Source: a virus. From it: a stretch of 64,000 nt of DNA. The position numbers were made by a program, and so were the translations under genes. Positions 3,176-63,782 of the stretch are shown here, one piece after another. The stretch lies in the IMG/VR virus record IMGVR_UViG_3300035034_003774; one strand, given 5' to 3'. The notes beneath the pieces are model-generated. The model ran no database searches and was not told the DNA's origin. It saw only the letters and a list, made by a program, of their open reading frames with translations. How positions within the stretch are numbered: position 1 is the first letter of the stretch; each line of letters starts with the position of its first letter.

Positions 3176-3180
3176 AATTT

Positions 3181-5124: not shown

Positions 5125-5144
5125 GTTTATTTTAATCTTTTTTA

Positions 5145-5173
5145 GTTATACGCATATTGCGAAAAAATGTTTC
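5145..5173 (-). promoter_or_regulatory. sigma70-like promoter GAAACA-N17-TATAAC upstream of rnr
   Basis: minus-strand reading GAAACATTTTTTCGCAATATGCGTATAAC; member of a repeated promoter family in this window. Confidence 0.5.
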
Positions 5174-7099: not shown

Positions 7100-7329
7100 C
7101 TTTTCAATAATTTTTTTAGTCTACTATTTTCTGTTTGCAATTTTTCATTTTCATCTAACACCCTCTTCAACTGATCTTCAGCTGTATCAAGAGCTCGGTA
7201 AATAGCTTTGGTAGTTTGAAAGAGCTTTCTTACATCTGGGTGAAACTCAACTTGAGAGTTCATTCTAATGTCGGCCTTAATGACCTCTCCCTTTCTCTTC
7301 TTATTCTTTTTGTTAATCCTTTGTCTCAT
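7096..7329 (-). CDS. small coiled-coil protein
   Basis: 77 aa, charged heptad-like sequence. Confidence 0.3.
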   Translation of the reverse strand: MRQRINKKNKKRKGEVIKADIRMNSQVEFHPDVRKLFQTTKAIYRALDTAEDQLKRVLDENEKLQTENSRLKKLLKR

Positions 7330-8204: not shown

Positions 8205-8222
8205 AATTTCTATTTATCTTAT

Positions 8223-8251
8223 GTTATACGCAAATTTACGAAAATTGTTTC
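8223..8251 (-). promoter_or_regulatory. sigma70-like promoter GAAACA-N17-TATAAC
   Basis: minus strand GAAACAATTTTCGTAAATTTGCGTATAAC, 20 nt before ATG at 8204. Confidence 0.5.
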
Positions 8252-8277
8252 AAAAAAAAAACAGGTCCGAAGACCTG
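8252..8277 (-). terminator. rho-independent terminator after MORN-repeat gene
   Basis: hairpin CAGGTC-CGAA-GACCTG (8262-8277) followed on minus strand by 10 T. Confidence 0.6.
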
Positions 8278-8302
8278 TTTATTAAAATATTTAGTTTTTT
8301 CC

Positions 8303-8857
8303 TTATTGATGGCGTGCTACAAGACCCTTATCATCGTTCCATGTCCAGCCTTCTATTAGCTCACCTCTTTTATATTCTTCAGACACAAGAAGTCGCCCTT
8401 CATCATCGTATTTAAAGCATTCACCATGCTTATCACCCCTCTTGTACTCTCTTTGAATTAGCAGATCACCATCTTCGTTGTATTGAGTCCACGTTCCATG
8501 TTTTCCTCCATTCTTAAATTCATACTCAGAAATAACAGAGCCATCCTCATTGTAAACAAACCAGTTACCATGCTTTTTTCCATTGTTATAAAAGCTGTAG
8601 CTAAGTTCTTGTCCATTCTGATAATATCTCACCCAGTCTCCAGACTTTCGTAAATATTCATCGTATGTACCACTTAGGCTTTTCTCGCCATCTTCATAAT
8701 ATTCGTTATACTCATAAGTATCACCATCAATTCCAGGAATAGCAATGAGCTCGTGTTTTGTGTTGCCATTTTCGTAAGTAGCTTTCTCAATGATGTCGTT
8801 AGAAAAAGCAAAAGCAGAAGTAAGACAAACAAATAATGTTATAATAAATTTTCTCAT
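8303..8857 (-). CDS. secreted MORN-repeat (MORN_2-like) protein
   Basis: signal peptide MRKFIITLFVCLTSAFAFS; repeated G-KHG-W-Y-EDG units. Confidence 0.55.
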   Translation of the reverse strand: MRKFIITLFVCLTSAFAFSNDIIEKATYENGNTKHELIAIPGIDGDTYEYNEYYEDGEKSLSGTYDEYLRKSGDWVRYYQNGQELSYSFYNNGKKHGNWFVYNEDGSVISEYEFKNGGKHGTWTQYNEDGDLLIQREYKRGDKHGECFKYDDEGRLLVSEEYKRGELIEGWTWNDDKGLVARHQ

Positions 8858-8992
8858 AATCTCTTATTTTTAGTTTTGTAATATTAACTCAATGTTAAGA
8901 GTTCTATACATAAATATACTCAAAATTAAGTAATTATTAAATAAAAAACAAGAAAACCAATGAATTATTTAAAATTTAGGCAAAAAACAATG

Positions 8993-9898
8993 TTAAGAAA
9001 TTGTTTCTAACTCACCTGGATGTACTGGAGTTCTCTTTAGTTTTTCGAAGAATTCTCCTCTAAATTTTCCTTTTGAAGCAAGATCACTTATCTTGAGATA
9101 CATATCTCCGTTTTGCAGACTTCCTTTAGGGTTAAAAGCCGCATACTTTCTTCTTCTTAATACTTCTGGAACTTCTTGCTTGAAGTGTACCTCTTTTATC
9201 GTATCACCCTCAAGACCTGAATGCTCTGTCATAAGAGTGTGGTCCAGCTTTACTGATTCATTCAAGTCTGGAGCTCCTCCAGTATGAGAGTCCATTGTTG
9301 GAAAATAAACCCAATCAGAATCAAAAGGTTCATATTCAAACATGATTGGTTGAGAGTCCATTTTTTTGTCTCCATCAAATATACAACACACAAAGCTCCA
9401 ACCTTTATAGTGATTTTTGAAGAAATCAAGTAGCTCATCAGAAATGTCTGGGCCATAAACTCCTAACCTATCTATAAGAGCATCAATATCATTAGTTGAT
9501 ATTACCTTGTATATGCCAAGACTAAACTCTTCAATACTCTTACTTTTAAAACCTCTTTCTATACCAAGACTTCTGGTTAAATTTACCTTTGTTCTCCTTT
9601 CTATTTCATCCATAAAGTCATTATACTCTGTTGTATCATAAAACCAATCCTTACTTAGTTTGCCAGGTATTGGAAGAATCATTGAGTTTACTTTACCAGA
9701 TTTATTCTCTGCCTTGTTTTTGTAAGAAATTAAATGCCTACCATTGTCAAGAGGCATTGATAAAATCTTTGTTTTTGTTAATTCTGCTTTTGCTGATACT
9801 ATACACATATTTTCTAATTTTAGATTAATGATTATAAAGGTCTTCACTATATAGCTTGCTACTACTGTATCCAAGCTTCTTAATTTGACCACATTCAA
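8993..9898 (-). CDS. hypothetical protein
   Basis: 301-aa ORF. Confidence 0.3.
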   Translation of the reverse strand: MNVVKLRSLDTVVASYIVKTFIIINLKLENMCIVSAKAELTKTKILSMPLDNGRHLISYKNKAENKSGKVNSMILPIPGKLSKDWFYDTTEYNDFMDEIERRTKVNLTRSLGIERGFKSKSIEEFSLGIYKVISTNDIDALIDRLGVYGPDISDELLDFFKNHYKGWSFVCCIFDGDKKMDSQPIMFEYEPFDSDWVYFPTMDSHTGGAPDLNESVKLDHTLMTEHSGLEGDTIKEVHFKQEVPEVLRRRKYAAFNPKGSLQNGDMYLKISDLASKGKFRGEFFEKLKRTPVHPGELETIS

Positions 9899-10178
9899 GG
9901 GCTATTTTAGCACCTTCTTTTCTTTTTACGAATCGGTTTTTACTTGTCAAAAACCCATCAACTCTTGTTCTGTTAAAATGAATCCTCATCTTATCATGAT
10001 CTCCATTGTTTTGATAATCAGGATAAAATGCTGCCGATGCCTGACTAATACAGTGAGCATGGCCGAGGCCAGAGAATACTATGCCATATTCAATATTTCT
10101 TGGCTTGTGGGCCACATTTACTTCTTTCTCTGGGAACCAGATTGAAGCGCACAATATTCTTTCCTTGGTTAAATCCAT
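9825..10178 (-). CDS. hypothetical protein
   Basis: ORF overlapping the 3' end of upstream gene in another frame. Confidence 0.3.
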   Translation of the reverse strand: MDLTKERILCASIWFPEKEVNVAHKPRNIEYGIVFSGLGHAHCISQASAAFYPDYQNNGDHDKMRIHFNRTRVDGFLTSKNRFVKRKEGAKIALECGQIKKLGYSSSKLYSEDLYNH

Positions 10179-10184
10179 TATTAC

Positions 10185-10610
10185 TTAAACTATAATTTCT
10201 CCTTCCTTTTTGAACTTATCTCTTAATCTTATTTTCTTTCTTAGAACCTCGATCTCTTTATTAATTCTCTCTCTCTCATCAAGCTTTAGCTGTAGATTGA
10301 TGTCGAGATTCTTGATGCCTATTATGAAATTGACTTCCATTTTAATGAATTTGCTTTTAAACTCATTATCAGTATCCATCAAGTTTTGATGAGTATTCTT
10401 ATAGTGACATATTGTTGAGTGATCTACGTCCAATATCTTACCTATTCTATATGGTCCTTTGTCAGTGTTCCTTTCAAGCACCAAAGATACCATTCTCTTT
10501 GCATCTACATACTCAGGCTTTCTGGACTTCTTTAAGACATCTTCTTTGCTAAATCCAAGAACCTCCTCCGCAATATTAAAAACTATATCAGCATCTCTAT
10601 CCATTATCAA
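10185..10610 (-). CDS. DnaA domain-IV-like helix-turn-helix protein
   Basis: KEDVLKKSRKPEYVDAKRMVSLVLERNTDKGPYRIGKILDVDHSTICHYKN matches the Bac_DnaA_C signature (SRKRE..AR..MYL.R..T......IG..FGGRDHTTVIHA). Confidence 0.5.
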   Translation of the reverse strand: MIMDRDADIVFNIAEEVLGFSKEDVLKKSRKPEYVDAKRMVSLVLERNTDKGPYRIGKILDVDHSTICHYKNTHQNLMDTDNEFKSKFIKMEVNFIIGIKNLDINLQLKLDERERINKEIEVLRKKIRLRDKFKKEGEIIV

Positions 10611-10858
10611 AATCCTATTACTTTAATGTAACCTTTATTGTTATAATCTCCCACCTTGTATTGAAACCCGTGTCTATCAAGAACAGCTCTAGTAAGTTTA
10701 TGCATCTCAGCTGAATTACCAGTTATTATGTCATGAGGACACGGTGTAAGAAATATATGATTCTCAACAATCCTATCTATGTCTGCATGTTTCTCTCCAT
10801 GCAGGTCCAGAGTTGTTTTTTCCGATTGTCTTACCTTATTCTTTTTCCTTCTAGCCAT
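10607..10858 (-). CDS. Smr (small MutS-related) domain protein
   Basis: TLDLHGEKHADI motif characteristic of Smr nickase domain. Confidence 0.5.
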   Translation of the reverse strand: MARRKKNKVRQSEKTTLDLHGEKHADIDRIVENHIFLTPCPHDIITGNSAEMHKLTRAVLDRHGFQYKVGDYNNKGYIKVIGF

Positions 10859-10861
10859 CTC

Positions 10862-11368
10862 CTACTCCGTGAATATGTGAGATACTTTATGCTTAATCTC
10901 TATAATTGCAGTGATTACTTGTTTCATTAAAAAATCTTCATCAACGCAAAACATTTTTGCGGCCTCATTGACAGGTAATGCATCAATTGCAACCGCATTA
11001 TAAAATACCCTGGTCTTAGAAGGTAGTTCCCTGATCATCTCAATCACAACTTCTGTTTGAATATCTTTGTTATGAAGATCAATATTTTCCTTTTTATTGG
11101 ATATAATCCCTGGCCTTACAATGATTTCGTTACAACAGTAATTAACCGCTATAGACCTTGACCACTCTTCAAAATTAGAAGGTATATCACCAGACTTAAG
11201 CTTATTAAATATAGTTATGAATATATTTTCCGTAAACTCCTTAGCTTCTTCCTCGCTTTCGGCGTATCGCATAGATATAGCATGAATCCTTCCATATTTA
11301 GATTTAAACACCTCCTTTTGATAAACTTTATCTCCAGAAGCAGCTTTTTCTAATGTAGAACGATTCAT
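10862..11368 (-). CDS. ECF-type sigma-70 family factor (regions 2 and 4)
   Basis: region-2-like KEVFKSKYGRIHAISMRYAESEEEAKEFTENIFITIFNKL and region-4-like LPSKTRVFYNAVAIDALPVNEAAKMFCVDEDFLMKQVITA. Confidence 0.45.
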   Translation of the reverse strand: MNRSTLEKAASGDKVYQKEVFKSKYGRIHAISMRYAESEEEAKEFTENIFITIFNKLKSGDIPSNFEEWSRSIAVNYCCNEIIVRPGIISNKKENIDLHNKDIQTEVVIEMIRELPSKTRVFYNAVAIDALPVNEAAKMFCVDEDFLMKQVITAIIEIKHKVSHIFTE

Positions 11369-11589
11369 TACTTATCCATTTTTTTTCTACCCTTAATTCT
11401 TGATCTAATAATCTCTGTTACAAGAAATATAACTACACCCCATGCAAAAAAGAAGAAGTGAAGAGCGAAAATTAATAAAATGACAAGCAGATGAGACATC
11501 CACGTCTTTTTATATCTAACGTAGTATACTGCAGTGATTATTACTGCTATTAGCGATACTATCCAAATTGGTAATCCTGATACAACCAT
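11368..11589 (-). CDS. small membrane protein
   Basis: two predicted TM helices. Confidence 0.35.
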   Translation of the reverse strand: MVVSGLPIWIVSLIAVIITAVYYVRYKKTWMSHLLVILLIFALHFFFFAWGVVIFLVTEIIRSRIKGRKKMDK

Positions 11590-11612
11590 GTTTTAAATTT
11601 TTTGATTCTTTA

Positions 11613-11641
11613 ATTATACGAAATATAAAAGTTTTTGTTTC
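11613..11641 (-). promoter_or_regulatory. sigma70-like promoter GAAACA-N17-TATAAT
   Basis: minus strand GAAACAAAAACTTTTATATTTCGTATAAT, 23 nt before ATG at 11589. Confidence 0.5.
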
Positions 11642-11686
11642 AAAAAAACTGATTTTATAGATCAGCTTTCAATGTGATTTTTATTC

Positions 11687-12436
11687 TTACCCAGCCATTA
11701 CGTCATCACCGCCTGGATTTGCCGAAGGAGAACCTTTAATATGGCCAGGGCTAATAGATTCAGATTTAGAAGGGCTTGAATCTATTCTTCCTTTGCTGAT
11801 TTTTTCCAATAGAACTCCAAGCTTTTCCTGCCTTTGCATTAATTCCTTAAGTTCCTTTAGAAATTCTTCCTCTTCTGATGTAGCATCACGAAACCCTTCA
11901 TCATAATCTTTGTTATTAGACTTCTCTTCAGCAGATTGATTAATCTTCTTAATCCTTCCATTAATTATAGAGAAAACTTCTTTGAACTCTTTTACAATTT
12001 CTTCTTCTTCATCCTCATTCTCTTCGAGCATGTTTATCTCATTAATATCAACTGGCTGGCTGAAATCGTATTCATTTACAGTTTTCTTGAAGTTCTTCAT
12101 AACGTTCATTCTGACTACGTTATTTTCAGCCCAAACATCATTAGAAGCAGCTTCAAGAACTTTTTCTTTAAGACCATCTACAGATGAGATGTCAAACCCA
12201 GAGTGCATCATTATAGCCCCTAAAACTTGAATGCCTACATTTCTATCCTCTTCATTTGTATCTGCCTTTGAGATCATGTTATTAATATCAACGATCTTAT
12301 CTTTTAAAACTTCTCTTGGTATGGGTTGTATTTTTTTGTCATCACCATACTCCTTAACTCCACAGAAGCTGTAAATATTTTCTTTCCACTCAAGAGCAGG
12401 GTCACCCCCGTATATTTGTTCATTCCACCAACCCAT
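11687..12436 (-). CDS. hypothetical acidic protein
   Basis: 249 aa, E/D-rich centre. Confidence 0.35.
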   Translation of the reverse strand: MGWWNEQIYGGDPALEWKENIYSFCGVKEYGDDKKIQPIPREVLKDKIVDINNMISKADTNEEDRNVGIQVLGAIMMHSGFDISSVDGLKEKVLEAASNDVWAENNVVRMNVMKNFKKTVNEYDFSQPVDINEINMLEENEDEEEEIVKEFKEVFSIINGRIKKINQSAEEKSNNKDYDEGFRDATSEEEEFLKELKELMQRQEKLGVLLEKISKGRIDSSPSKSESISPGHIKGSPSANPGGDDVMAG

Positions 12437-12462
12437 TATTATATGTTTTTAAATATTCATTG

Positions 12463-12488
12463 CGAATTTAATTAATTAATTCCAATCG
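12463..12488 (-). promoter_or_regulatory. conserved upstream motif B (AATTAATTAATTCCAAT) plus ATTCGCAAT element upstream of 11687-12436 gene
   Basis: identical 17-nt core to 1967-1983; adjacent ATTGCGAAT (12459-12467) also seen at 5153-5161 and 52903-52911. Confidence 0.4.
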
Positions 12489-12500
12489 AGCAAAATAAAG

Positions 12501-13700
12501 TTAGAATTTATACCTATCCGATCTGGTTCTATTTCTAAATTTTGGCTTTTTTTTCATTAACTCATCGTCAAAATCATTGGCCACAAACCACCAGACAAGT
12601 CCAGTAGTTATGATAACAATAATTACCATAGACCATATAATGCTCGAAACTGGAGGGTCTACCGTTAAGTAATTGAATTCTGAAAACTCTTTCCTTACAA
12701 ATTTCTTATCCAGACTTCCATACAAGAATTCGCTTATATCTTCAAGATTCAACTTATCCTGATTTAACACAAACTTCCTAGCTTCTACTTTTACAATAGA
12801 ATGTTCAGCCCAAGTAAATGGATGGACCCAGTTAACATTATTATCTTTGTCTACTCCTATTGCGAGCACAAATTCATTTTTATTTCCACCTTTCCAATAA
12901 GCTTCCTGAAGTATCCCCGATCTCTTGGGCTTATTCTTGAATATCAATATAAATGCCTTCAACTGTTTTTTAGGACCAAGCTTTGCATTTAGTATTTGCA
13001 TATTTTTCTCAGCTACTTCTTGAGTCTTATCTCCATCTCCCAGGATGCTAATCTGCTTAAAACCTTTATATATCTTGGGATAATCATAAAGGCCATGCTT
13101 CTCTTTTTGCTCTTCAGTTACATCTTCAAAATCAAACACGGTGTGCGCAGCTTGCACTCTATTCTCATAAGTATGCTCAGTTACTATGCACTCAATCAAA
13201 TCTCTTTTCTTAGTCCAAAAGGAGCTGTATATGCCATTATCATAAGTGTGGTAATTTGAGTGCTTACCAGTCTTTTTTTCATTTCCCCACTTACTCTTAA
13301 TTCTATTATACTCACTTTTGCTAATTCTTACAGAGCTTCCATGTTTATTTATTATTCTCCAGCGTGGAGGATGATTTTCAATGTAAGAGCAGTCATAAGT
13401 TCTGGTGCAATATTTAGTGCCTCCATTTGAGTTTGTTCCACATGGATAGCTTTCTGTACAAGTTCTATGTATGTATTCATCATATGCGCCTTCATACTGA
13501 ACCTTATAAGCAACGTCTCCCCAATACTCCGTATCAGACGTCATTGATGTTTCTATGATCAGCTTAGCTATCAGAATAGTTAAAACAGAAACGCCAAACA
13601 ACATTAAATACTCCCACCAAGCTATTTTACGCTTATCAAAAAAGATAAACATAACAATAGTAGCTAACACTGGTATCAACATTAAAAACCAAATATTCAT
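12501..13700 (-). CDS. membrane protein with Cys-rich ectodomain
   Basis: N-terminal 2 TM, C-terminal TM, cysteine-rich middle. Confidence 0.35.
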   Translation of the reverse strand: MNIWFLMLIPVLATIVMFIFFDKRKIAWWEYLMLFGVSVLTILIAKLIIETSMTSDTEYWGDVAYKVQYEGAYDEYIHRTCTESYPCGTNSNGGTKYCTRTYDCSYIENHPPRWRIINKHGSSVRISKSEYNRIKSKWGNEKKTGKHSNYHTYDNGIYSSFWTKKRDLIECIVTEHTYENRVQAAHTVFDFEDVTEEQKEKHGLYDYPKIYKGFKQISILGDGDKTQEVAEKNMQILNAKLGPKKQLKAFILIFKNKPKRSGILQEAYWKGGNKNEFVLAIGVDKDNNVNWVHPFTWAEHSIVKVEARKFVLNQDKLNLEDISEFLYGSLDKKFVRKEFSEFNYLTVDPPVSSIIWSMVIIVIITTGLVWWFVANDFDDELMKKKPKFRNRTRSDRYKF

Positions 13701-13707
13701 AATATTA

Positions 13708-13992
13708 CTATTTTATTTTCTTCTTAAGATCAGAAATCTCTTTATCACTGAATTTACTTTGATGCTCAATTAATATTCTCATCTTGATTTCTTTTTCAGA
13801 ATAATCACCCCCAATCCATCCAGCTGAATTAATAATAAGAGAATTATTGGCTGCATCCACTTCTTTTTCCGTCATAGGAGTAGTCAATCTATTGATTATT
13901 CTATCCTTTTCTTCCTTTCGTTTTTTTTCCGCTTCAGCTCTTGACTCTGCAATCTTTCTTTTTATGTAATTGATTATTTTCATCATAAGCAC
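13708..13992 (-). CDS. hypothetical protein
   Basis: 94-aa ORF, possible GTG start or ATG at 13986. Confidence 0.3.
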   Translation of the reverse strand: MLMMKIINYIKRKIAESRAEAEKKRKEEKDRIINRLTTPMTEKEVDAANNSLIINSAGWIGGDYSEKEIKMRILIEHQSKFSDKEISDLKKKIK

Positions 13993-13995
13993 ATT

Positions 13996-14020
13996 AAAAA
14001 AGGGGCATAAAGCCCCTTTT
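13996..14020 (-). terminator. rho-independent terminator
   Basis: GGGGC-ATAAA-GCCCC hairpin flanked by A-run and TTTT (symmetrical); on minus strand followed by TTTTTT. Confidence 0.55.
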
Positions 14021-14026
14021 GATTAA

Positions 14027-14581
14027 TTAAAATATCTCTATATCATCTTCCTTTCCAGACTTAAATGTCTCTTCGGTTTTTGTGCTTGTGACTATGACAT
14101 TATCCATAGGTTCTCGATCTCCTACAAAGAAACTTCCAGGAAATGTTACGAGCATCTTGTTATACTCCTCCTCTACGGCAACCATCTCTTTTTGCCTTGT
14201 AGCAAAATCTGTCCTTTGAGCCTCAATTGTATTCATGAGGTTATTGAACATTGTTGCGTCGAAATTAGGGCTATGCTCCTGAACCCAGGACATCATTTGA
14301 CCTTGGCCGTCTGAATATCTATTATCCATAAGCCCAGTGTATATTTCTTTAAAAGACTCCTGATACTTATCAACCACTCCTGCTTGCTGACTAATAATTT
14401 TCCATACAGCATCAAAATCTGCTTTATTAGATTTTATCTTCTTATCAACCTGAACTTCAAGTTGATTTGCGTGGTTGTTGTAAGAAATTGACATAGAAAC
14501 ATATATTGTTCCCAGTATCAACGCTATCGCTCCAAATATGACATAAGACTTATTCTTTTGCCAAAAACTTTTATTTTCCAT
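14027..14581 (-). CDS. membrane-anchored protein (LemA-like architecture)
   Basis: single N-terminal TM then soluble helical domain. Confidence 0.3.
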   Translation of the reverse strand: MENKSFWQKNKSYVIFGAIALILGTIYVSMSISYNNHANQLEVQVDKKIKSNKADFDAVWKIISQQAGVVDKYQESFKEIYTGLMDNRYSDGQGQMMSWVQEHSPNFDATMFNNLMNTIEAQRTDFATRQKEMVAVEEEYNKMLVTFPGSFFVGDREPMDNVIVTSTKTEETFKSGKEDDIEIF

Positions 14582-14608
14582 TTTGCTATAAATTTATGAT
14601 TTCTCAAT

Positions 14609-14637
14609 GTTATACGCAAAAATAAATAAAATGTTTC
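14609..14637 (-). promoter_or_regulatory. sigma70-like promoter GAAACA-N17-TATAAC
   Basis: minus strand GAAACATTTTATTTATTTTTGCGTATAAC, 27 nt before ATG at 14581. Confidence 0.5.
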
Positions 14638-15023
14638 TATTTAACTATTTTAACATGAAATAAATCTTTATCAAAGTCAAAATCTGGAACAGACTTTTCA
14701 AATGCTGACTTAAGACTTGATATAGGGTCCTTATATAATAACCGAACCCCACCCATAGGAAGTCCAAAGGGAGCGCCTTTGTAATTGGTGTATAGATTAT
14801 GTGAATTCTTCTTGCCCTTTTTCACTTCAAGGCCTGTAAGTTCAATAGCCTCTTTCTTTGATATTGAGTAATCTGAATCCGTATTGAATGACTTTATAGA
14901 CTCCATGAACAAAGCGCATCCACTTAAGTCTTTTTTCTTATCGTATTTAGCAATTGCTTTATCAAGCTCTGCTTGTGTGTAGGTAGTTAAGAACACTCCT
15001 ACTTTTGTATTAATTTTTTTCAT
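14637..15023 (-). CDS. hypothetical protein
   Basis: 128-aa ORF. Confidence 0.3.
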   Translation of the reverse strand: MKKINTKVGVFLTTYTQAELDKAIAKYDKKKDLSGCALFMESIKSFNTDSDYSISKKEAIELTGLEVKKGKKNSHNLYTNYKGAPFGLPMGGVRLLYKDPISSLKSAFEKSVPDFDFDKDLFHVKIVK

Positions 15024-15035
15024 AGCTCCTATTTT

Positions 15036-15449
15036 TTATAGAAGCTCTTCAAAATCTTTTCTCCAGGAGGTGTTGTTTTTGACGTTAACAGAGCTTCCAT
15101 TACTATATTTTAGGATTAAATCATGTTCTACGGAATCGTCATCTATATGTATATCAATGCCGATATTATTAACCCATGAGAACTTGTACTTCCTATTAGT
15201 AAATAGAATTTTTTCTTCTGGAAGTTCTATTTTTAGAGATTTTAGCATATTATATACAGCGATATGTTCATTGCCAAGACCCTTGTCAAAATCTATTGGC
15301 CCATACCTTCTTGTTATAATATAAACATCGTATTCACCAGAATTTAATAGTTCAATGAATAGTTTTATAACTGAATCTTTCTCTGGATTAACATCTCCAA
15401 AAAAGTGATCACTAAGTGTACCGTCAAAATCGAAAGAAATCTTCTTCAT
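15036..15449 (-). CDS. HAD-superfamily hydrolase (small phosphatase/nucleotidase-like)
   Basis: motif I FDFDGTL (DxDGT) at N-terminus; first gene of the minus-strand block. Confidence 0.55.
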   Translation of the reverse strand: MKKISFDFDGTLSDHFFGDVNPEKDSVIKLFIELLNSGEYDVYIITRRYGPIDFDKGLGNEHIAVYNMLKSLKIELPEEKILFTNRKYKFSWVNNIGIDIHIDDDSVEHDLILKYSNGSSVNVKNNTSWRKDFEELL

Positions 15450-15482
15450 AGTCTTTAAATATACAAAAAATAAGCATTATTT

Positions 15483-15511
15483 GCAACATAAATCATTAAT
15501 TTGCGTACAAC
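15483..15511 (+). promoter_or_regulatory. plus-strand promoter GCAACA-N17-TACAAC in divergent region
   Basis: TTTGCAACATAAATCATTAATTTGCGTACAAC keeps the conserved CG before the -10. Confidence 0.4.
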
Positions 15512-15546
15512 AGAGTATGAATAATTTCAAATTACAATAAATAACA

Positions 15547-16047
15547 ATGGTAGAGACAGAGTGTTTTTGTGTTAATGAAAAGTGTAGAGAATACGGCAAC
15601 ACAGTTGTGGTAAAGGATTATGACTACACAGAAGGTATGCAAAACTTTTGCTCAAGCTGTGGAGTAAGGTTAAAGGCGAGGCCTAATAAAAGTAATGGCC
15701 TAAACATAGAAGATGTTAAGAAAATACTAAATAATATAAATTTCGCAGAATACTCATGCATAGACATGGGCTGGGAATTCCAGATTAAAATTGAAGGTGA
15801 TCTATATCTAATTAGAACATCCTTTAAAAGAAAGGATATTAATAGCGGGAAACTCGGCAAAGGTTGGGGCCGTTGGCACACAACTCCAGTTAAAGGAGCA
15901 AGTGAAACATCTATAGTAATGACTGCGTGGGTTTGTGTTAAAATGATAATCGAACACGAGTTGCTTGAAGGGTTTGAATACAAAGGCAAAAAAGTATTCA
16001 ATCCTCACAAGACTATTGATCAACTCGTATATCCAAATAAATTATGA
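15547..16047 (+). CDS. zinc-ribbon containing protein
   Basis: CFCVNEKC...CSSCG N-terminal Cys4. Confidence 0.35.
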   Translation: MVETECFCVNEKCREYGNTVVVKDYDYTEGMQNFCSSCGVRLKARPNKSNGLNIEDVKKILNNINFAEYSCIDMGWEFQIKIEGDLYLIRTSFKRKDINSGKLGKGWGRWHTTPVKGASETSIVMTAWVCVKMIIEHELLEGFEYKGKKVFNPHKTIDQLVYPNKL

Positions 16048-16442
16048 GTGAATCTGTAGTGTACAAACTAAGTAAAGAGGCGATCTCTATTGTTGATGAT
16101 AAAATTGACATGATGGACCAGTGGCTCATGCAAATGAGTGACGAGGAACTAAGTAAGTGGCATATAATATGCGATAAAGTACATGATCAAAGAACTGAAG
16201 AAGAAATTGACATTATTGATAAATATGCTATTGTTCTTTACTACAGAGAGCTTGATGTTGAGGAGTTGTCAATAAACTCAGAGTTAATAGCCGACATAAC
16301 CTCCAGATTTTGTGTAAATATTATAGTTGCATCCCTAAGAAGAAGAGGTATCGTCAAGACTGAGGAACCACTTTTACTGTATAAATCAAGAAAGATGGAG
16401 CTTACTGAAAAAGGAAAAAAAATTAACGAAGAAAATAAATAA
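16044..16442 (+). CDS. hypothetical protein
   Basis: ATGA overlap with upstream gene. Confidence 0.35.
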   Translation: MSESVVYKLSKEAISIVDDKIDMMDQWLMQMSDEELSKWHIICDKVHDQRTEEEIDIIDKYAIVLYYRELDVEELSINSELIADITSRFCVNIIVASLRRRGIVKTEEPLLLYKSRKMELTEKGKKINEENK

Positions 16443-16443
16443 T

Positions 16444-16472
16444 GAAACATTTTCATTTTATTTTCGTATAAT
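16444..16472 (+). promoter_or_regulatory. plus-strand promoter GAAACA-N17-TATAAT
   Basis: TGAAACATTTTCATTTTATTTTCGTATAAT, 21 nt before ATG at 16493. Confidence 0.5.
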
Positions 16473-16492
16473 AACAGCTAAATTTATTTAAC

Positions 16493-16792
16493 ATGACAAA
16501 TAAAGAATCAAAAATATCAAACAGAGCAAAGATGCAAACACTAATCAGTCAAAACACTTCGATGGCTGCTGGAGACTTTCATGCTGATCAGCTTGATGTT
16601 AATTCCCTTGTCATGGACATTAAAAAGCATTTCAACATTTCTACCAAAGACAATAGAAGTGATGGGGTGGTAATTAGTAAATTAGTTAAATCAAGCACCA
16701 GGAGACTGCGTGGGCGAACCAGTGCAAAAGAATTTAATCAAAAAAAGTTTTTAAAACTATTTTTTGAATCATTTGAAATAGAAAGAGTATGA
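16493..16792 (+). CDS. hypothetical protein
   Basis: 99-aa ORF. Confidence 0.3.
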   Translation: MTNKESKISNRAKMQTLISQNTSMAAGDFHADQLDVNSLVMDIKKHFNISTKDNRSDGVVISKLVKSSTRRLRGRTSAKEFNQKKFLKLFFESFEIERV

Positions 16793-17085
16793 CACCAAAA
16801 ACTGAACAAATAGATCACAATCTATCTCTACTTAATTTTGATAAAATTGAGAAGGCTATGAGAGCTGTTGACTGGAAGTGGAAAGACCCAAAGACCAATG
16901 AGGTAAGGATTCCAGAAAAAGACGAACTCAAGAGCATGGCAGAGTATTGTATGAATATGGCCTGGGAATCTCCAAAAAACTTCTTTTCCACTGGAGGGTT
17001 TGAGGCTGAGTTGATAAATGGAACTATGGAAATTAGATTCATCCTTGACAGGGCGAACTTTCTATCTAAATTATTCGAAAAATAA
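16789..17085 (+). CDS. hypothetical protein
   Basis: 98-aa ORF, overlaps upstream stop. Confidence 0.3.
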   Translation: MTPKTEQIDHNLSLLNFDKIEKAMRAVDWKWKDPKTNEVRIPEKDELKSMAEYCMNMAWESPKNFFSTGGFEAELINGTMEIRFILDRANFLSKLFEK

Positions 17086-17436
17086 ATGAGCTTTTCAAAA
17101 AATAAGGAAACTGAAATACAGGCTTTGTTTGATGTAATCAAGGAAAAAACTAAAGATAAGTTTGACCTTGATGTCGAAAGCATTGATGATGTGAAAACAA
17201 AATCAAGGAAGAGGCCTCTTGTTTACTTCAGGAAAATGATGATGATCATTCTTGGAGAAACGTATTGCAGTAGCCCTCACAATTATAGCCAGGAAGATAT
17301 AGCAAAAGTCGTCGGAAGAGACAGAACATCGCTAATACATCATAGTAAAATTCACCTTAATGAATACAGTAGGTATAAAGACTATAAGGACGAATATGAC
17401 CAAATCAGAGCGGACTGGGAAAATAAAATTAAATAA
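17086..17436 (+). CDS. DnaA domain-IV-like helix-turn-helix protein
   Basis: KTKSRKRPLVYFRKMMMIILGETYCSSPHNYSQEDIAKVVGRDRTSLIHHSKIH matches the Bac_DnaA_C pattern. Confidence 0.5.
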   Translation: MSFSKNKETEIQALFDVIKEKTKDKFDLDVESIDDVKTKSRKRPLVYFRKMMMIILGETYCSSPHNYSQEDIAKVVGRDRTSLIHHSKIHLNEYSRYKDYKDEYDQIRADWENKIK

Positions 17437-17499
17437 TATTTGGTTTTATATTGAAACTTTTATAATTTTGTAACGTATTTATATACACAAGCATTAATT

Positions 17500-17794
17500 T
17501 GAGAATAACAAATTGTTGTAATGTTAGCACAGGGGTTCGACTCCCCTCAGTTCCACAAAGCAAATAAAAAATGGGGCTGTACTTGGCAATTAGACTGCAT
17601 TAGACCACGGTTTGTTTAGAATTTTATGCTTATCCATAATAAATGGAAATGATTTAACAAAATCTCTTGCCCTTGAGGCAGTCCTCAACAGCGAGAGAGC
17701 TGAAACTACAGCAGTAGCCCCAGTGGCTATGGCAGCGTAGTCAGTACGTGATTTAGAAAGCTCTGGCAAATAATAGTAGCCAGAGCTTTTTTTA
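17500..17794 (+). ncRNA. ssrA: candidate circularly permuted (two-piece) tmRNA (ssrA-like)
   Basis: T-arm AGGGG-TTCGACT-CCCCT (17531-17547) and acceptor 3' strand CAGTTCC + A73 (17548-17555). 18 nt downstream GGGGCTG (17573-17579) pairs with it to give G1-C72, G2-C71, G3:U70, G4:U69, C5-G68, U6-A67, G7-C66 (AlaRS identity G3:U70/A73). GGCAATTAGAC resembles tmRNA GGATTCGAC. GC-richer island with Ala-rich ORF ...AETTAVAPVAMAA-TAG (17699-17740). Terminates in strong hairpin 17761-17794. Start boundary uncertain. Confidence 0.4.
17761..17794 (+). terminator. rho-independent terminator at end of tmRNA-like locus
   Basis: GCTCTGGC-AAATAATAGTA-GCCAGAGC followed by TTTTTTT. Confidence 0.6.
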
Positions 17795-17835
17795 TTTAAA
17801 GTTATTAACATGTTAATAACTTTTTAAAATTTGAT

Positions 17836-17864
17836 TAAACATTTTTCATTTCTCTACGTATCAC
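17836..17864 (+). promoter_or_regulatory. possible promoter TAAACA-N17-TATCAC upstream of sigma factor gene
   Basis: keeps conserved CG before the -10 but the -10 is weak. Confidence 0.3.
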
Positions 17865-17899
17865 ATATAATTAAAATAATAATATAAGAACAGGACAAA

Positions 17900-18781
17900 A
17901 TGAGGCAATTAAAAATTACAAAACAAATCACCAATCGTGAGACACAATCTTTTAGTAAATATCTAACGGAGGTAAACAGTATAGGTGATGTAATTTCTCC
18001 CGAAGAAGAGATAGAGCTAACCAGGAGAATAAAGGAAGGAGATGAGAAGGCTCTTGAGAAACTTGTTACAGCAAATTTAAGATTTGTTATTAGTGTTGCA
18101 AAACAATATGGAAATATGGCACCTCTTCCCGATCTTGTAAATGAAGGGAACTTAGGACTTATCAAAGCTGCTAACAGATTTGATGAGACCAGAGGGTTTA
18201 AGTTTATATCATATGCGGTGTGGTGGATTAGACAATCAATAATGCAATACTTATCAGATCATGGCAAAATGATCAGGCTCCCATCTAATAGAGTAAACAT
18301 GATTCAAAACGTCAGAAAGGCGGATAACTATTTAGAACAATTACTCCAGAGAAAGCCTACTTACTTAGAAATTTCAGAACTATTATCTGAGAAAGACACT
18401 AAGTACACAGAGAAAATGGTGAAGAGTTTAATGAAGAATGATCAAAAAGTTTCTTCAGTAGATGCTCCAATAACAACAAGTGATGAATCTGGAAGCATGC
18501 TAGACCTAATGGAAGGTGATGGAGGTCAGGATGCAGATAAAGTAACCAATAAAAGCGATCTTATGATAGAGGTTGAGAGAACGCTTGATTTATTACCAGC
18601 GAGACAAAAGGAGGTTCTGGTAATGTATTTTGGACTTCTTGGAACTCGTCAATGTAGCCTAGAAGAAATAGGAATTAAATACGATCTCACAAGAGAACGT
18701 GTTAGACAGATAAAAGAAAAAGCTTTAAGAAGAATTAAAGTAATCTCCAGAAATAGCAGCCTTAAAGAATTTATACAATAA
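17900..18781 (+). CDS. rpoD: RNA polymerase sigma factor, short Bacteroidota-type sigma-A (RpoD-like)
   Basis: MRQLKITKQITNRETQSFSKYL N-terminus typical of Bacteroidota sigma-A; regions 2 (YAVWWIRQSI), 3 and 4 (EEIGIKYDLTRERVRQIKEKALRRI). Confidence 0.85.
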   Translation: MRQLKITKQITNRETQSFSKYLTEVNSIGDVISPEEEIELTRRIKEGDEKALEKLVTANLRFVISVAKQYGNMAPLPDLVNEGNLGLIKAANRFDETRGFKFISYAVWWIRQSIMQYLSDHGKMIRLPSNRVNMIQNVRKADNYLEQLLQRKPTYLEISELLSEKDTKYTEKMVKSLMKNDQKVSSVDAPITTSDESGSMLDLMEGDGGQDADKVTNKSDLMIEVERTLDLLPARQKEVLVMYFGLLGTRQCSLEEIGIKYDLTRERVRQIKEKALRRIKVISRNSSLKEFIQ

Positions 18782-18794
18782 TAAAATTACCCAT

Positions 18795-19400
18795 ATGAAA
18801 AAGCCTATACCTTTAAGAGGGAAAATATTTATGTGGATACTGGGACTTTCGGTTTTAGGGACCCTAATCTGGTATTTATGGAATGGACAGGTATTATCAT
18901 GGATAGGAATATTGATATTTGTTATTATAACATTTATTTTTGATAAAAGAGCGCAAAATAAAAAAAGAGGTAAAAATCTAAAGCTTGCTCTTGATGTTCA
19001 TGGAGTTTGTGATGAAAATCCAGAATTCTTTTCTAAGATGACCCAACTATTCGTTGAAAACGGACATGAAGTTCACGTACTAACTGGAAGGCGAATGTCA
19101 GATGGAGCTCTTGAGGAGATAGATGATCTTAATATACACTATACACATTTTATGTCAATAGCTGACTATCATACCGAAAAGGGTACAAAAATGTGGGAAG
19201 ACGAAAATGGAAACCCATGGCTTGACGATGTGGACTGGGACCGAACAAAGGGAGATTACTGCAGAGACAATAATATTGACTTCTGCATTGATGATACTGA
19301 AAGGTATGTACAATATTTTGAAACACCTTTTGCTCACATAAAAATTCAGAAGAACGAAAAGGTTGCTAAAAAATCTGAACCTAAACGCAGAAAAAATTAA
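18795..19400 (+). CDS. membrane protein with cytoplasmic domain
   Basis: two N-terminal TM helices. Confidence 0.35.
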   Translation: MKKPIPLRGKIFMWILGLSVLGTLIWYLWNGQVLSWIGILIFVIITFIFDKRAQNKKRGKNLKLALDVHGVCDENPEFFSKMTQLFVENGHEVHVLTGRRMSDGALEEIDDLNIHYTHFMSIADYHTEKGTKMWEDENGNPWLDDVDWDRTKGDYCRDNNIDFCIDDTERYVQYFETPFAHIKIQKNEKVAKKSEPKRRKN

Positions 19401-19403
19401 GTC

Positions 19404-19577
19404 ATGATATTACTAAAAATACTAACAATATATTCTGTTTTATGCATTGTCTGGCTATTTATTTTAGTCTTCCTTCCAAATGGATGGATAATTAAAAAGT
19501 ACCCCAAAGAATGGGAGGAAGAGGAAAATAATGAACTTGATAGGAAGTTCAAAGAATACGATGAAAACCAGGAATAA
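19404..19577 (+). CDS. small membrane protein (57 aa, below ORF-track cutoff)
   Basis: ATG 19404, MILLKILTIYSVLCIVWLFILVFL hydrophobic helix, stop TAA inside loop of the following terminator. Confidence 0.3.
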   Translation: MILLKILTIYSVLCIVWLFILVFLPNGWIIKKYPKEWEEEENNELDRKFKEYDENQE

Positions 19578-19590
19578 TCCTGGTTTTTTT
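19568..19590 (+). terminator. rho-independent terminator
   Basis: CCAGGA-ATAA-TCCTGG followed by TTTTTTT. Confidence 0.6.
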
Positions 19591-19603
19591 ATTTAATTTA
19601 AGA

Positions 19604-20338
19604 GTGTTTTTTACTACCTTTTATAAAATTAAAGGAATGAAAAAAGAACACTTCAAAGAGCTGCTTACTGACTTGTATACTGCATACAATCCAGACTTTG
19701 TTAAATACGTACCTCAGCTTGTTGAAAAATATCATAGACTTGAATTCGATGCAATTCAAAATGCTCTCATAAAGTATAACCATGAATCTTACGCTCACTA
19801 TGACCCAGAAAAGGCTACAGATGAATACATTCACCAACTAATAAAAGATTATAGTGAAGAGAACCGATCTCTTAAGAATTTCACAGTTGAAATGGAGATT
19901 ATAAGACGGGAGAAAGATAAGGCAAATAAGTCTGAGGAAGAAAAAGCTCTTGAGGAAGCTGCTAGAAAGAAGACTGAAGAAGAGCTTACTGGAGTTAAGG
20001 CAAAGCTTTCTGAGACAGAGAAAAAAATACAAGATGCTCAAGAAAGGCTAAACGAAAGGCTTGCCAAAATAAACAGTCAGCTTGAGGATACAGAACCTGT
20101 AGTTCAGAACACATCTCTATATGATGGTGTAGAAATATCAATAAAATCAAATTATACAGATTCAGAACTTGATCTTCCTAACAAAGAAGTTCTTGCTGGA
20201 CTTGGTAAAGGGACCAGGCTTATTGTTAAAGATAATAACGGTAAGATGATCGGAGTGGTGATTGAGGAGATACTATATGATTGCATTTCTCATCCAGCGG
20301 GTATTCCTATTGTAGAAATTATAATCAGCAAGGGTTAA
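19604..20338 (+). CDS. coiled-coil protein
   Basis: central charged coiled-coil (EEKALEEAARKKTEEELTGVKAKLSETEKKIQDAQERL). Confidence 0.35.
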   Translation: MFFTTFYKIKGMKKEHFKELLTDLYTAYNPDFVKYVPQLVEKYHRLEFDAIQNALIKYNHESYAHYDPEKATDEYIHQLIKDYSEENRSLKNFTVEMEIIRREKDKANKSEEEKALEEAARKKTEEELTGVKAKLSETEKKIQDAQERLNERLAKINSQLEDTEPVVQNTSLYDGVEISIKSNYTDSELDLPNKEVLAGLGKGTRLIVKDNNGKMIGVVIEEILYDCISHPAGIPIVEIIISKG

Positions 20339-21036
20339 TGGCTAGTAAAAAATACATAGAAATAGAGGGGGTTAAATGCGAAATTAAAAACCCAGACAAA
20401 GAGGCTGTTACTTTGTATTACCAGGATAGTTTAAGGGAAGCTATATCAGATTATGAAAGATCAGTATCCAGATGGACTGAATCAAGAAGAGCTTATAGAG
20501 ACGGGCTAAAGATAAATGTGATCACAGCTCCATTTACTCTGGGATGGCTAAAAAAGCCAGAAGACCCAGACGAATACCTCGTTATCACAGGTCGTATAAC
20601 AATGGATGAGCTGAAAAAGAAAAGGGCGAAAGAATCTGCTAAAAACAAAAATAAAACCAGGAAAAAGTCAACCAGAAAAAAAACGGCCACTAAATCAAGC
20701 AACACAAAACCCTCAAAATCAGCATCTAATAAAAAAACGGCCACTAAATCGGCCATTTCCCCAAAAACGGCCAAAAGTTCCCCAAAGAAACCTGAAACAA
20801 AGGGCTCATCAACTACTTCTAAAAAGACTTCTAAGACTACTACAGCTAAGAAAACGGCAACGAAATCGGCAACCACAAAAGCTTCTAAATCAAAGGCTAC
20901 AAAGAAAACGGCAAAGAAATCGGCAACGAAAAAGAAGACTGCAGCAAAGGGCTCACAAAGGGCTCAGTCTAATTCCACAAAAAAGAAAAAAGCTGCCCCA
21001 AAAAAGGCAGCTTCTAAAAAAGGTTCTAAGAAATAA
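20338..21036 (+). CDS. histone H1-like lysine/alanine-rich DNA-binding protein
   Basis: C-terminal ~140 aa of KKTATKSA / TKKSATKKK repeats; internal ATG at 20338 preferred over the 20281 overlap start. Confidence 0.5.
   Translation: MASKKYIEIEGVKCEIKNPDKEAVTLYYQDSLREAISDYERSVSRWTESRRAYRDGLKINVITAPFTLGWLKKPEDPDEYLVITGRITMDELKKKRAKESAKNKNKTRKKSTRKKTATKSSNTKPSKSASNKKTATKSAISPKTAKSSPKKPETKGSSTTSKKTSKTTTAKKTATKSATTKASKSKATKKTAKKSATKKKTAAKGSQRAQSNSTKKKKAAPKKAASKKGSKK
20640..21030 (+). repeat. intragenic imperfect tandem repeats (AAAACGGCNACNAAATCGGC) encoding the K/T/A repeats
   Basis: recurring aaaacggccactaaatc / aaaacggcaacgaaatcggc units. Confidence 0.5.
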
Positions 21037-22452: not shown

Positions 22453-22481
22453 ATTATACGTTATAAAACAAATTATGTTAC
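22453..22481 (-). promoter_or_regulatory. sigma70-like promoter GTAACA-N17-TATAAT
   Basis: minus strand TGTAACATAATTTGTTTTATAACGTATAAT; placed immediately after the terminator T-tract. Confidence 0.5.
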
Positions 22482-22506
22482 AAAAAAAGGTGAGCAATAG
22501 CCCACC
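22482..22506 (-). terminator. rho-independent terminator
   Basis: GGTGGGC-TATT-GCTCACC hairpin then TTTTTTT on minus strand. Confidence 0.5.
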
Positions 22507-22538
22507 CTCTCTTAATTCTTAACAATGTTATAAAATAT

Positions 22539-26919: not shown

Positions 26920-26948
26920 ATTATACGCTACAAATATAATAATGTTAC
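26920..26948 (-). promoter_or_regulatory. sigma70-like promoter GTAACA-N17-TATAAT
   Basis: minus strand TGTAACATTATTATATTTGTAGCGTATAAT, immediately after the terminator T-tract. Confidence 0.5.
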
Positions 26949-27940: not shown

Positions 27941-28051
27941 TTTCTATTTTTTTTGATTAATAATGACAAATGTAACTAATTATTATTTACGAAAGAAAAT
28001 TTTTGTCATAATTATTCTTTCTCTGCATTAAAAATGCTAATTTATGCTGCG

Positions 28052-45732: not shown

Positions 45733-45761
45733 TTTATACGAAATAATTATTTGGATGTTTC
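45733..45761 (-). promoter_or_regulatory. sigma70-like promoter GAAACA-N17-TATAAA
   Basis: minus strand TGAAACATCCAAATAATTATTTCGTATAAA; -10 lies only 8 nt from the annotated ATG 45724. Confidence 0.45.
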
Positions 45762-56763: not shown

Positions 56764-56792
56764 TTTATACGTTAATTTTCTAAAATTGTTAC
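56764..56792 (-). promoter_or_regulatory. sigma70-like promoter GTAACA-N17-TATAAA
   Basis: minus strand GTAACAATTTTAGAAAATTAACGTATAAA; -10 only 6 nt from the annotated ATG 56758, supporting a downstream true start. Confidence 0.45.
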
Positions 56793-58351: not shown

Positions 58352-58380
58352 TTTATACGTTGATAAATTAAAAATGTTAC
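58352..58380 (-). promoter_or_regulatory. sigma70-like promoter GTAACA-N17-TATAAA
   Basis: minus strand GTAACATTTTTAATTTATCAACGTATAAA. Confidence 0.45.
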
Positions 58381-63734: not shown

Positions 63735-63782
63735 AAAAAAACCGCTTTCTTTGGTTATACGAAAGCGGTTGTAAAATGTTGC
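63735..63782 (-). promoter_or_regulatory. terminator hairpin with embedded promoter (GCAACA-N17-TATAAC) directly upstream of the gltS-family gene
   Basis: 9-bp stem ACCGCTTTC/GAAAGCGGT (63741-63769) with the -10 TATAAC inside the loop, A-run 63735-63740 abutting ATG 63734, -35 at 63777-63782. Confidence 0.45.

Follow-up and report, generated by a model that had tools for sequence, protein, structure and literature searches.

What might a virus do with two sigma factors, one resembling the primary sigma factor (sigma-A, RpoD) of Bacteroidota and the other of the extracytoplasmic function (ECF) type? The question is raised by a 64,000-nucleotide stretch of viral DNA from the IMG/VR record IMGVR_UViG_3300035034_003774 (hereafter the window, meaning the whole stretch analysed). 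A first-pass annotation had described a 293-aa sigma-A open reading frame (ORF) on the plus strand and a 168-aa ECF-like ORF on the minus strand of this stretch, and both are present as described (Table 1). The window probably derives from a large T4-like Bacteroidota phage that redirects the core RNA polymerase of its host by its own ECF and sigma-A-like sigma factors. The genes, folds, families, phylogeny, motif statistics, placement, and conservation are reported below as observed, and from them we infer the pairing of sigma factors with promoters and the order of events.

The sigma-A-like protein and its phylogeny

The 293-aa protein matches the Pfam domains Sigma70_r1_2, Sigma70_r2, Sigma70_r3, and Sigma70_r4 (PF00140, PF04542, PF04539, PF04545), all above cutoff, and its N-terminus, MRQLKITKQITNRE, equals the consensus with which 80 cellular Bacteroidota RpoD proteins begin, in agreement with its initial description as a full short sigma-A with the ITNRE signature. 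In the alignment with these 80 proteins it is a short form, with the MRQLKItkqITNRE start at residue 1 and no long region 1.1; its cellular matches are 287 aa long. Region 2.3/2.4 (FISYAVWWIRQSIMQ) and region 4.2 (LTRERVRQIKEKA) are identical to the cellular Bacteroidota RpoD consensus, and most of the divergence from cellular RpoD is held by regions 1.2 and 3.

The protein had been called a near-host-type primary sigma factor, a label that the phylogeny does not sustain. Mean identities are 67% among cellular proteins and 65% among phage proteins, but only 52% between the two groups, and the top match among species-representative cellular genomes reaches 55%, with none above. In a neighbour-joining tree of 245 sequences and 286 columns, the window protein and 33 others formed a phage-only clade of 34 sequences with 98% bootstrap support; its members all stem from metagenomic or viral contigs, with no named cellular genome among their sources. 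Within the clade, the window protein shares 73% identity with one relative (locus L001; related loci are numbered in this way throughout) and 55–59% with its other nearest clade-mates. A close relative was also sought among GenBank phages, where identities were at most 40% (33–40%). Against the RpoD equivalog TIGR02393, the protein scored 198.7 bits at a cutoff of 354, but the NCBIfam RpoD cutoffs are uninformative here because genuine Bacteroidota RpoDs fail them too (233–261 bits).

Orthology with cellular rpoD is thus not supported, given the separate clade and the absence of flanking genes common with the 80 cellular loci, and the protein is a viral paralogue and not the product of the housekeeping gene. 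Its clade placement and the mean identities indicate that this copy is no recent capture but belongs to a viral lineage of the Bacteroidota primary sigma factor that is old or evolves fast.

Viral origin of the window

About 90 genes were found in the window; apart from an island of plus-strand genes at 15547-21036, almost all are on the minus strand. Most of the ORFs are orphans or members of phage-only families, and many match phage-only PHROG families, including phrog_13933 (E=4e-160), phrog_14336 (7e-81), and phrog_2087 (7e-52). The contigs that hold relatives are 141 and 169 kb (IMG/VR) and 199.7 and 364 kb long. In L006 and L007, the immediate neighbour of the sigma gene is a T4 gp17-like terminase ORF (E=1.5e-23), more distant sigma-bearing IMG/VR phages carry T4-like TerL and portal genes at a distance of a few kb, and terminase and head-protease families were detected in a batch scan of the clade contigs. 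The phage-only PHROGs, the relatives on viral contigs, and the terminase by the sigma gene bear out the earlier impression of an apparently viral region. The first-pass annotation had also proposed conserved housekeeping synteny as a sign of a chromosomal origin. When 80 cellular Bacteroidota rpoD loci (±3 kb) were compared, the sigma gene was the sole window ORF with a homologue and no flanking gene was common with the window, whereas phage-clade loci share 14–37 ORFs with it.

It is extremely improbable, then, that the region is a piece of a bacterial chromosome, symbiont, or megaplasmid in which the 293-aa protein serves as an ordinary housekeeping or alternative sigma factor. Such an origin would suit the lack of capsid, portal, and terminase genes, none of which was found in the 64-kb window by three PHROG scans of large ORFs, as well as the presence of cell-like genes (an RNase R-like nuclease, LysRS, a Thg1-like enzyme, Pnkp/Hen1, RlaP, DnaJ, and the tmRNA). 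However, huge phages are known to carry tRNA synthetases, tmRNAs, and such cell-like genes (Al-Shayeb et al., 2020, PMC7162821), none of the 80 cellular rpoD loci is syntenic with the window, and the phage-only sigma clade, the IMG/VR relatives with TerL beside the sigma gene, and the mostly orphan or phage-only ORFs, nearly all on one strand, all speak against it. The window looks like an early or auxiliary region of a phage genome.

The gp17-like terminase ORF is about 300 aa long, half the usual length (L006, 8901-9812 on the minus strand, with the sigma gene at 10001-10930; L011, 19520-20434), and may be split or interrupted by an intron or endonuclease. The L006 copy occupies the position of the tmRNA in the window.

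The divergent ECF sigma factor

Taken alone, the 168-aa protein scored 19.4 bits against Pfam Sigma70_r2, below the cutoff of 24, showed no detectable Sigma70_r4_2, and gave 35 bits against TIGR02937 without reaching the cutoff of 42.9; a word-indexed homology search returned only the protein itself. Its orthologs in L005, L006, and L008 do pass curated sigma thresholds. An exhaustive HMMER search (phmmer) retrieved 826 relatives, nearly all ECF sigma factors, with residues ~6–165 covered, and among the top 47 aligned relatives Sigma70_r4_2 was present in 46, Sigma70_r2 in 43, and Sigma70_ECF in 36. The best PDB match of the family profile is Bacillus subtilis SigW (E=3e-31), with which the protein shares an identity of only 17–21%. 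The single-sequence AlphaFold prediction was useless (pLDDT 43) and an alignment-based AlphaFold2 model was needed; the latter (pLDDT 91, pTM 0.78) comprises sigma2 and sigma4 only, without regions 1.1 or 3. Its top Foldseek matches are all ECF sigma factors (sigmaE, SigW, AlgU), and sigma2 superposes on region 2 of Escherichia coli sigmaE (4lup) at 1.8 Å and sigma4 on region 4 (2h27) at 1.1 Å. Because the HMMER relatives, the SigW profile match, and the AlphaFold superposition agree, the protein is identified from sequence and model as a real but divergent ECF (group-4) sigma factor, and the description as an ECF-like sigma with regions 2 and 4 only stands.

Relatives of the ECF locus were collected with TM73, the membrane protein encoded directly upstream, as query, and ECF orthologs are present in L001, L005–L008, and L151. 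Between the window and L001, the ECF proteins share 49% identity and the sigma-A proteins 73%, so the ECF gene is evolving much faster. Conservation is high in the sigma2 segment, the part that reads the -10 element. The sigma4 recognition helix of the window protein is VDEDFLMKQVITAIIEIK, compared with I.EGT.KS.LS(R/K)AR in relatives.

Some relatives have a longer ECF protein of 359–367 aa, with a zinc-ribbon/HNH_3-like domain fused to its N-terminus (L008, 1612-2715 on the minus strand; P0279, P0281). One such fusion was deposited as a protein of a 'Nanoarchaeota' metagenome-assembled genome and probably comes from a mis-binned phage contig.

An ECF-type promoter class

The unusual promoter consensus mentioned by the first-pass annotation corresponds to a recurrent intergenic motif, tttnttG(a/t/c)AACAtttt-N-CGTATAA (TGnAACA-N-CGTATAA), with the core AAC-N16-CGTAY. 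The core was found at 15 sites in the window against 0.76 expected, a count reached by none of 100 shuffles. All but one of the 15 sites are intergenic and on the coding strand, 9–70 nt before a start codon or the tmRNA, with a spacing of exactly 16 nt, and single-mismatch variants add almost nothing. This geometry is an ECF promoter architecture and is SigW-like. The genes behind the sites are listed in Table 1; in relatives, motif sites also precede regions with DNA ligase, RtcB, and helicase genes.

The motif is characteristic of the clade, with 5–8 sites per 20 kb in L001–L009, L011, and L037 and at most two in all other loci. In its stringent form, only 45 matches occur in the whole of IMG/VR (2.9 million contigs), concentrated in few large contigs. 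A literature search for the motif string yielded nothing relevant.

Four of the 14 promoters abut an upstream intrinsic-terminator hairpin (8226-8290, 11616-11680, 22456-22520, and 26923-26990, minus strand), and in these compact terminator-promoter modules the T-run of the terminator is at the same time the T-rich stretch before the -35 element. Sites of the same type also occur in apparently unrelated viruses: L165 (IMGVR_UViG_3300050014_000823, 299 kb) has 12 of them in 11 kb (990-10630), and in a further lineage (L184/L187) a different ECF gene is flanked by the same promoters, none of which lies directly upstream of it.

The candidate reader of the ECF-type promoters

The first candidate for a reader is the ECF sigma factor itself. 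An AAC/CGT motif is not only present and enriched in the window but also precedes the TM73-ECF operon, and the order promoter-TM73-ECF is kept in the window, L001, L006, and L008, with the same gene order in L151; in L005, the motif site precedes not TM73 but p249, the next gene upstream. In each of the four closest ECF relatives from cellular Bacteroidota, GGCAACC-N-CGTC or -CGTT (AAC-N16-CGT) is located upstream of the gene itself, at -37 to -41 relative to the start codon, and therefore the ECF family typically reads the AAC-N16-CGT geometry. The fourth -10 base, which separates the ECF regulons of B. subtilis (PMC5758882), is A in the phage (CGTA) as opposed to C in three and T in one of the cellular relatives (CGTC, CGTT), which argues for a dedicated phage factor. 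The ECF gene flanked by such promoters in the unrelated L184/L187 lineage also speaks for a link between ECF genes and the motif. We infer that the window ECF reads the phage-specific class TGnAACA(TTTT)-N-CGTATAA, with AAC at -35 and CGT at -10, 16 nt apart.

Several observations weigh against this pairing and against the model as a whole. The canonical GT.K..RAR of the sigma4 recognition helix is lost to DFLMKQVITAI in the window and is also lost in L001, although the -35 motif does not differ from that of relatives with the canonical helix. In the L004/L009/L150 lineage, the promoters, TM73, and p83 are kept (p249-TM73-p83 in L004/L150), but the ECF gene is gone from the operon. No ECF gene was found within ~10 kb in L004/L009/L150 or in L011/L037, and no profile-search match was traceable to the 199.7-kb contig of the L004-type phage. 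The ECF operon shows only the ECF-type promoter, and no other that could start the first round of ECF synthesis. To these are added the structural genes missing from the window and the sigma-A tree having been built by neighbour-joining only.

Some of these observations would follow if the AAC-N16-CGTATAA promoters were real but read by a host ECF or another phage sigma factor, the window ECF being in decay or repurposed. This explanation is conceivable, though we hold it rather doubtful. It would account for the eroded helix beside an unchanged -35 motif, for the promoters without an ECF gene in the operon of the L004/L150 lineage, and for the faster evolution of the ECF than of the sigma-A copy, and it is also in keeping with the similar AAC-N16-CGT element before the closest host-type ECF genes. 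However, neither the window nor L001 has a disrupted ECF ORF, the protein has a confident sigma2 and sigma4 fold, its -10-reading segment is well conserved, the gene stays behind a motif site in five lineages, and the CGTA of the phage points to a dedicated phage factor.

Alternatively, the sigma-A-like protein, as a retargeted primary sigma factor, might read the AAC/CGTATAA promoters in place of the ECF. Every lineage with the motif has its gene, even where no ECF gene is visible, and the protein is strongly diverged overall from cellular RpoD. This alternative is nevertheless distinctly improbable, as the 2.3/2.4 and 4.2 segments are essentially identical to the cellular consensus, whose specificity is taken to be TTTG/TAnnTTTG, and the fixed AAC-N16-CGT geometry is of the ECF and not the group-1 type.

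The sigma-A promoter and the permuted tmRNA

The sigma-A-like gene itself has an ECF-type promoter. A motif site lies 30–60 nt upstream of the sigma gene in L001–L009, L011, and L037, and its sequence deviates alike across lineages (the window; L001, 9941-9964; L004, 9944-9967; L008, 9944-9967), with TAAACA (AAAACA in L001) instead of TGnAACA at -35 and CGTATCA instead of CGTATAA at -10. This shared deviation suggests a deliberately tuned promoter, for which a probably weaker expression is predicted.

Directly upstream of this promoter, a permuted (two-piece) tmRNA gene with an ECF-type promoter of its own was found by ARAGORN and an E-value scan; at gathering thresholds, Rfam gave no match in the window. 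The Rfam model RF04321 (tmRNA_permuted) matches 17498-17740 over its full length with 37.9 bits (cutoff 47, E=5e-6), and the ortholog in L001 reaches the gathering score with 47.4 bits. The tag predicted by ARAGORN in the window, GNDLTKSLALEAVLNSERAETTAVAPVAMAA, ends in ...AVAPVAMAA followed by a stop. ARAGORN also predicted tmRNAs in L001 (9574-9937) and L004 (9001-9373), with tags ending in ...VAMAA in the window and L001 and ...VVELA in L004. No tmRNA was detected by ARAGORN in L005, L006, or L008, though the promoter sits at the same place.

Host-type promoters

The consensus promoter of the Bacteroidota primary sigma factor is TTTG/TAnnTTTG. The unchanged 2.3/2.4 and 4.2 segments of the sigma-A copy, which are the promoter-reading parts, therefore predict a host-like promoter specificity. 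In the non-coding DNA upstream of genes, the element TAnnTTTG, which we take to be the sigma-A -7 element, occurs 10 times on the coding strand against 2.9 expected, a number that none of 500 shuffles reaches, compared with 2 against 2.5 expected in the reverse-complement control. Only this intergenic, strand-specific test was positive; window-wide, TAnnTTTG is not enriched, and the full TTTG-N19-TAnnTTTG occurs once in the window, which is within chance. A scan for E. coli-type sigma-70 promoters, a consensus not applicable to Bacteroidota, gave 61 sites against 45.9±7.8 expected (<2 standard deviations), and the T4-late motif TATAAATA is not enriched in the upstream regions of the window.

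Proposed course of host polymerase redirection

As no phage RNA polymerase was seen in the window, sigma factors encoded by the phage are the most likely means of redirecting the host core enzyme. The ECF sigma would first serve an early/middle-type regulon comprising the RNase R, Pnkp/Hen1, and RlaP genes, the permuted tmRNA, the sigma-A-like gene, and its own operon, whose promoter suggests putative autoregulation and would provide positive feedback. Without a recognisable anti-sigma gene beside it, the ECF probably becomes active immediately upon synthesis. The sigma-A copy would drive the host-type TAnnTTTG promoters upstream of some phage genes and, once the ECF programme is running, would supplement or replace the host sigma-A. 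Staged redirection of the host RNA polymerase had been suggested before; the evidence fits redirection by sigma factors, while the order of the stages is read only from promoter placement.

A more far-reaching version would be a self-contained takeover, in which ECF feedback leads to replacement of the host sigma-A by the sigma-A copy, so that all sigma factors are viral, and the helix-turn-helix (HTH) protein HTH139 of the ECF operon supplies the -35 recognition. We consider this combination unlikely. HTH139 was found, among the relatives checked, only in L001, and the window and L001 form the lineage with the eroded ECF helix. This co-occurrence is no more than suggestive; HTH139 may be a -35 reader, as a split or outsourced sigma4 function, in this lineage.

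Comparison with known systems

RpoD-like sigma factors have been reported in 'group 2' T4-like jumbo phages with a gp23-type capsid, including Bacteroidetes megaphages (Iyer et al., 2021, PMC7824862), and sigma-70 and tmRNA genes in huge phages (Al-Shayeb et al., 2020, PMC7162821). Like these phages, the window encodes a near-complete cell-derived sigma-70, a tRNA synthetase, and a tmRNA, with no RNA polymerase of its own seen in it, and T4-like packaging genes on relatives and a large genome complete the likeness. Unlike in those phages, its sigma-A falls in a distinct, previously unnamed clade, and the arrangement of an ECF-type promoter and an adjacent permuted tmRNA at the sigma-A gene is not described in either study (PMC7824862, PMC7162821). 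For the ECF sigma, a functional parallel is offered by gp36 of phiEco32, a phage-encoded ECF-family sigma factor with the partner gp79 (PMC12276001). Both are small phage sigma factors that direct the host core to a phage-specific promoter class, which is predicted in the present case. The differences are another host phylum, no identified gp79-like displacer of the host sigma factor, a classic AAC/CGT ECF promoter, and an additional primary-type sigma factor.

The SigW consensus of B. subtilis is TGAAAC-N16-CGTA (TGAAAC/CGTA) with an optional T-tract after the -35 element (PMC5758882). The phage ECF and its motif resemble SigW in the best profile match, the spacing, the T-tract after -35, and the CGTA at -10, and differ from it in the low sequence identity, the lack of an RsiW-like anti-sigma factor, and the unconserved sigma4 recognition helix. 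The nearest cellular relatives are Bacteroidota proteins of the TIGR02985 'Sig70_bacteroi1' and GFO_1088 families, from which the phage system is set apart by the -10 element CGTATAA in place of CGTC/CGTT and by the missing overlapping anti-sigma-like gene. The crAss-like phages, which infect the same host phylum, carry ECF genes annotated as 'sigma-W factor' that are 28–31% identical to the L005 ortholog. Cascades of sigma factors operate in SPO1 (gp28, gp33/34) and T4 (gp55/gp33, AsiA/MotA). As in these phages, successive sigma-type factors are proposed here to re-aim the host polymerase at successive promoter classes; unlike in SPO1 and T4, the phage factors include a copy of the host primary sigma, and there is no enrichment of the T4-late-type motif.

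Phage RpoD-like and ECF sigma factors are thus already known, and the predicted reprogramming of host RNA polymerase by this virus is a clear but not unprecedented case. What appears to be new is the combination, in one clade, of an explicit ECF-type promoter regulon that takes in a primary-sigma copy and a permuted tmRNA with an eroded sigma4 helix. Almost nothing is known of the promoters and regulatory order of huge uncultured Bacteroidota phages, and the sequence studied here provides an explicit wiring diagram: a rare ECF-type promoter class, a candidate sigma factor to read it, and a defined regulon of RNA repair and processing genes, the tmRNA, and the primary-sigma copy. The motif could be used to mark related phages and help to sort their genes into temporal classes, and in Bacteroidota the sigma/promoter pair might find use as an orthogonal expression part. 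A further question raised by the sequence is why a virus keeps a diverged copy of a primary sigma factor with unchanged DNA-reading surfaces.

Neighbouring genes and other features

A co-transcribed anti-sigma factor is common in ECF systems but not obligatory. The four closest cellular ECF relatives are each followed by an overlapping downstream anti-sigma-like gene, which the phage ECF lacks, and the search for an anti-sigma partner proposed by the first-pass annotation found no recognisable anti-sigma domain (Pfam) in TM73, p83, or HTH139. TM73, with 59–76% identity across the clade, always lies directly upstream of the ECF gene and is still present in L004/L150, where the ECF gene is absent. 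As a classical anti-sigma factor it was rejected, since it is too short, has no anti-sigma domain, and persists without the ECF gene.

The next gene, p83, shares 59–79% identity with its counterparts in L001, L004, L008, and L151. Its initial assignment as an Smr-domain protein has to be dropped: no Pfam Smr match was obtained at E<=1, the family profile had no PDB match at E<=10, and the only Smr-like trace is the resemblance of the LDLHG...TGNS motif. The DnaA-C-like HTH assignment of HTH139 is plausible, with NCBIfam DnaA C-terminal matches and E=7e-7 for Pfam Bac_DnaA_C, although the 29.7 bits lie just below the Pfam cutoff of 31.5. A second protein of this kind, HTH116, reaches 30.5 bits against Bac_DnaA_C and is found clade-wide, with 53–78% identity in L001, L004, L005, L006, and L008.

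Table 1. Positions of the sigma factor genes, promoters, and neighbouring features in the window.
Feature	Position	Strand	Remarks
Sigma-A-like, group-1-type phage sigma factor	17900..18781	+	293 aa; Pfam domains, phage-only clade
Divergent ECF (group-4) sigma factor	10862..11368	-	168 aa; HMMER relatives, profile, AlphaFold2 fold
Sigma-A gene promoter	17838..17861	+	ECF-type motif, variant TAAACA-N-CGTATCA
tmRNA promoter	17455..17478	+	ECF-type; equivalents L001 9564-9587, L004 8989-9012
TM73-ECF-p83-HTH139 operon promoter	11616..11639	-	ECF-type; same position in L001, L004, L006, L008
Promoter opening plus-strand island 15547-21036	15485..15508	+	ECF-type motif
Promoter upstream of 16493-16792	16446..16469	+	ECF-type motif
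Promoter upstream of 14027-14581	14612..14635	-	ECF-type motif
Promoter upstream of 7329-8204	8226..8249	-	ECF-type motif; abuts terminator T-run
Promoter upstream of RNase R-like gene 3181-5124	5148..5171	-	ECF-type motif; RNB domain
Promoter upstream of 21268-22386	22456..22479	-	ECF-type motif
Promoter upstream of 26412-26879	26923..26946	-	ECF-type motif
Promoter upstream of RlaP-like gene 44453-45724	45736..45759	-	ECF-type motif
Promoter upstream of Pnkp-like gene 54038-56758	56767..56790	-	ECF-type motif; PNKP_ligase
Promoter upstream of 58095-58343 / Hen1 gene	58355..58378	-	ECF-type motif; Hen1_N
Promoter upstream of Glu_synthase-domain gene 62199-63734	63757..63780	-	ECF-type motif
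Permuted (two-piece) tmRNA gene	17465..17831	+	ARAGORN, Rfam; between HTH116 and sigma-A gene
Terminator-like hairpin and T-run after tmRNA	17757..17794	+	Read from sequence: AAAGCTCTGGC...GCCAGAGCTTTTTTT
Host-type -7 element TACATTTG	27967..27974	-	26 nt upstream of 26999-27940
Other host-type -7 elements	2039-2046, 8921-8928, 29920-29927, 40132-40139	all -	TAnnTTTG
TM73, two-transmembrane membrane protein	11368..11589	-	73 aa; first gene of ECF operon, conserved in clade
p83, LDLHG...TGNS motif protein	10607..10858	-	83 aa; downstream of ECF
HTH139, DnaA domain-IV-like HTH	10185..10604	-	139 aa; in ECF operon
HTH116, second DnaA domain-IV-like HTH	17086..17436	+	116 aa; upstream of tmRNA and sigma-A

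Elsewhere in the window, a dense set of RNA-repair and translation genes is located at 3181-7099, 24629-25465, 44453-45724, and 52920-58093, including the RNase R-like nuclease, lysyl-tRNA synthetase, a Thg1-like tRNA-His guanylyltransferase, the RlaP nucleotidyltransferase, DnaJ, and Pnkp with Hen1, several of them behind ECF-type promoters. Candidates for host manipulation are encoded at 313-1953, 30701-31483, 48259-49971, and 62199-63734, namely GHKL/HATPase_c_3, ADP-ribosylglycohydrolase, Ser/Thr protein kinase-like, and glutamate-synthase-domain proteins. In addition, the last gene of the plus-strand island (20338-21036) encodes a protein with a lysine/alanine/threonine/serine-rich, histone-H1-like C-terminal tail of KKTATKS-type repeats, which may be DNA-coating.

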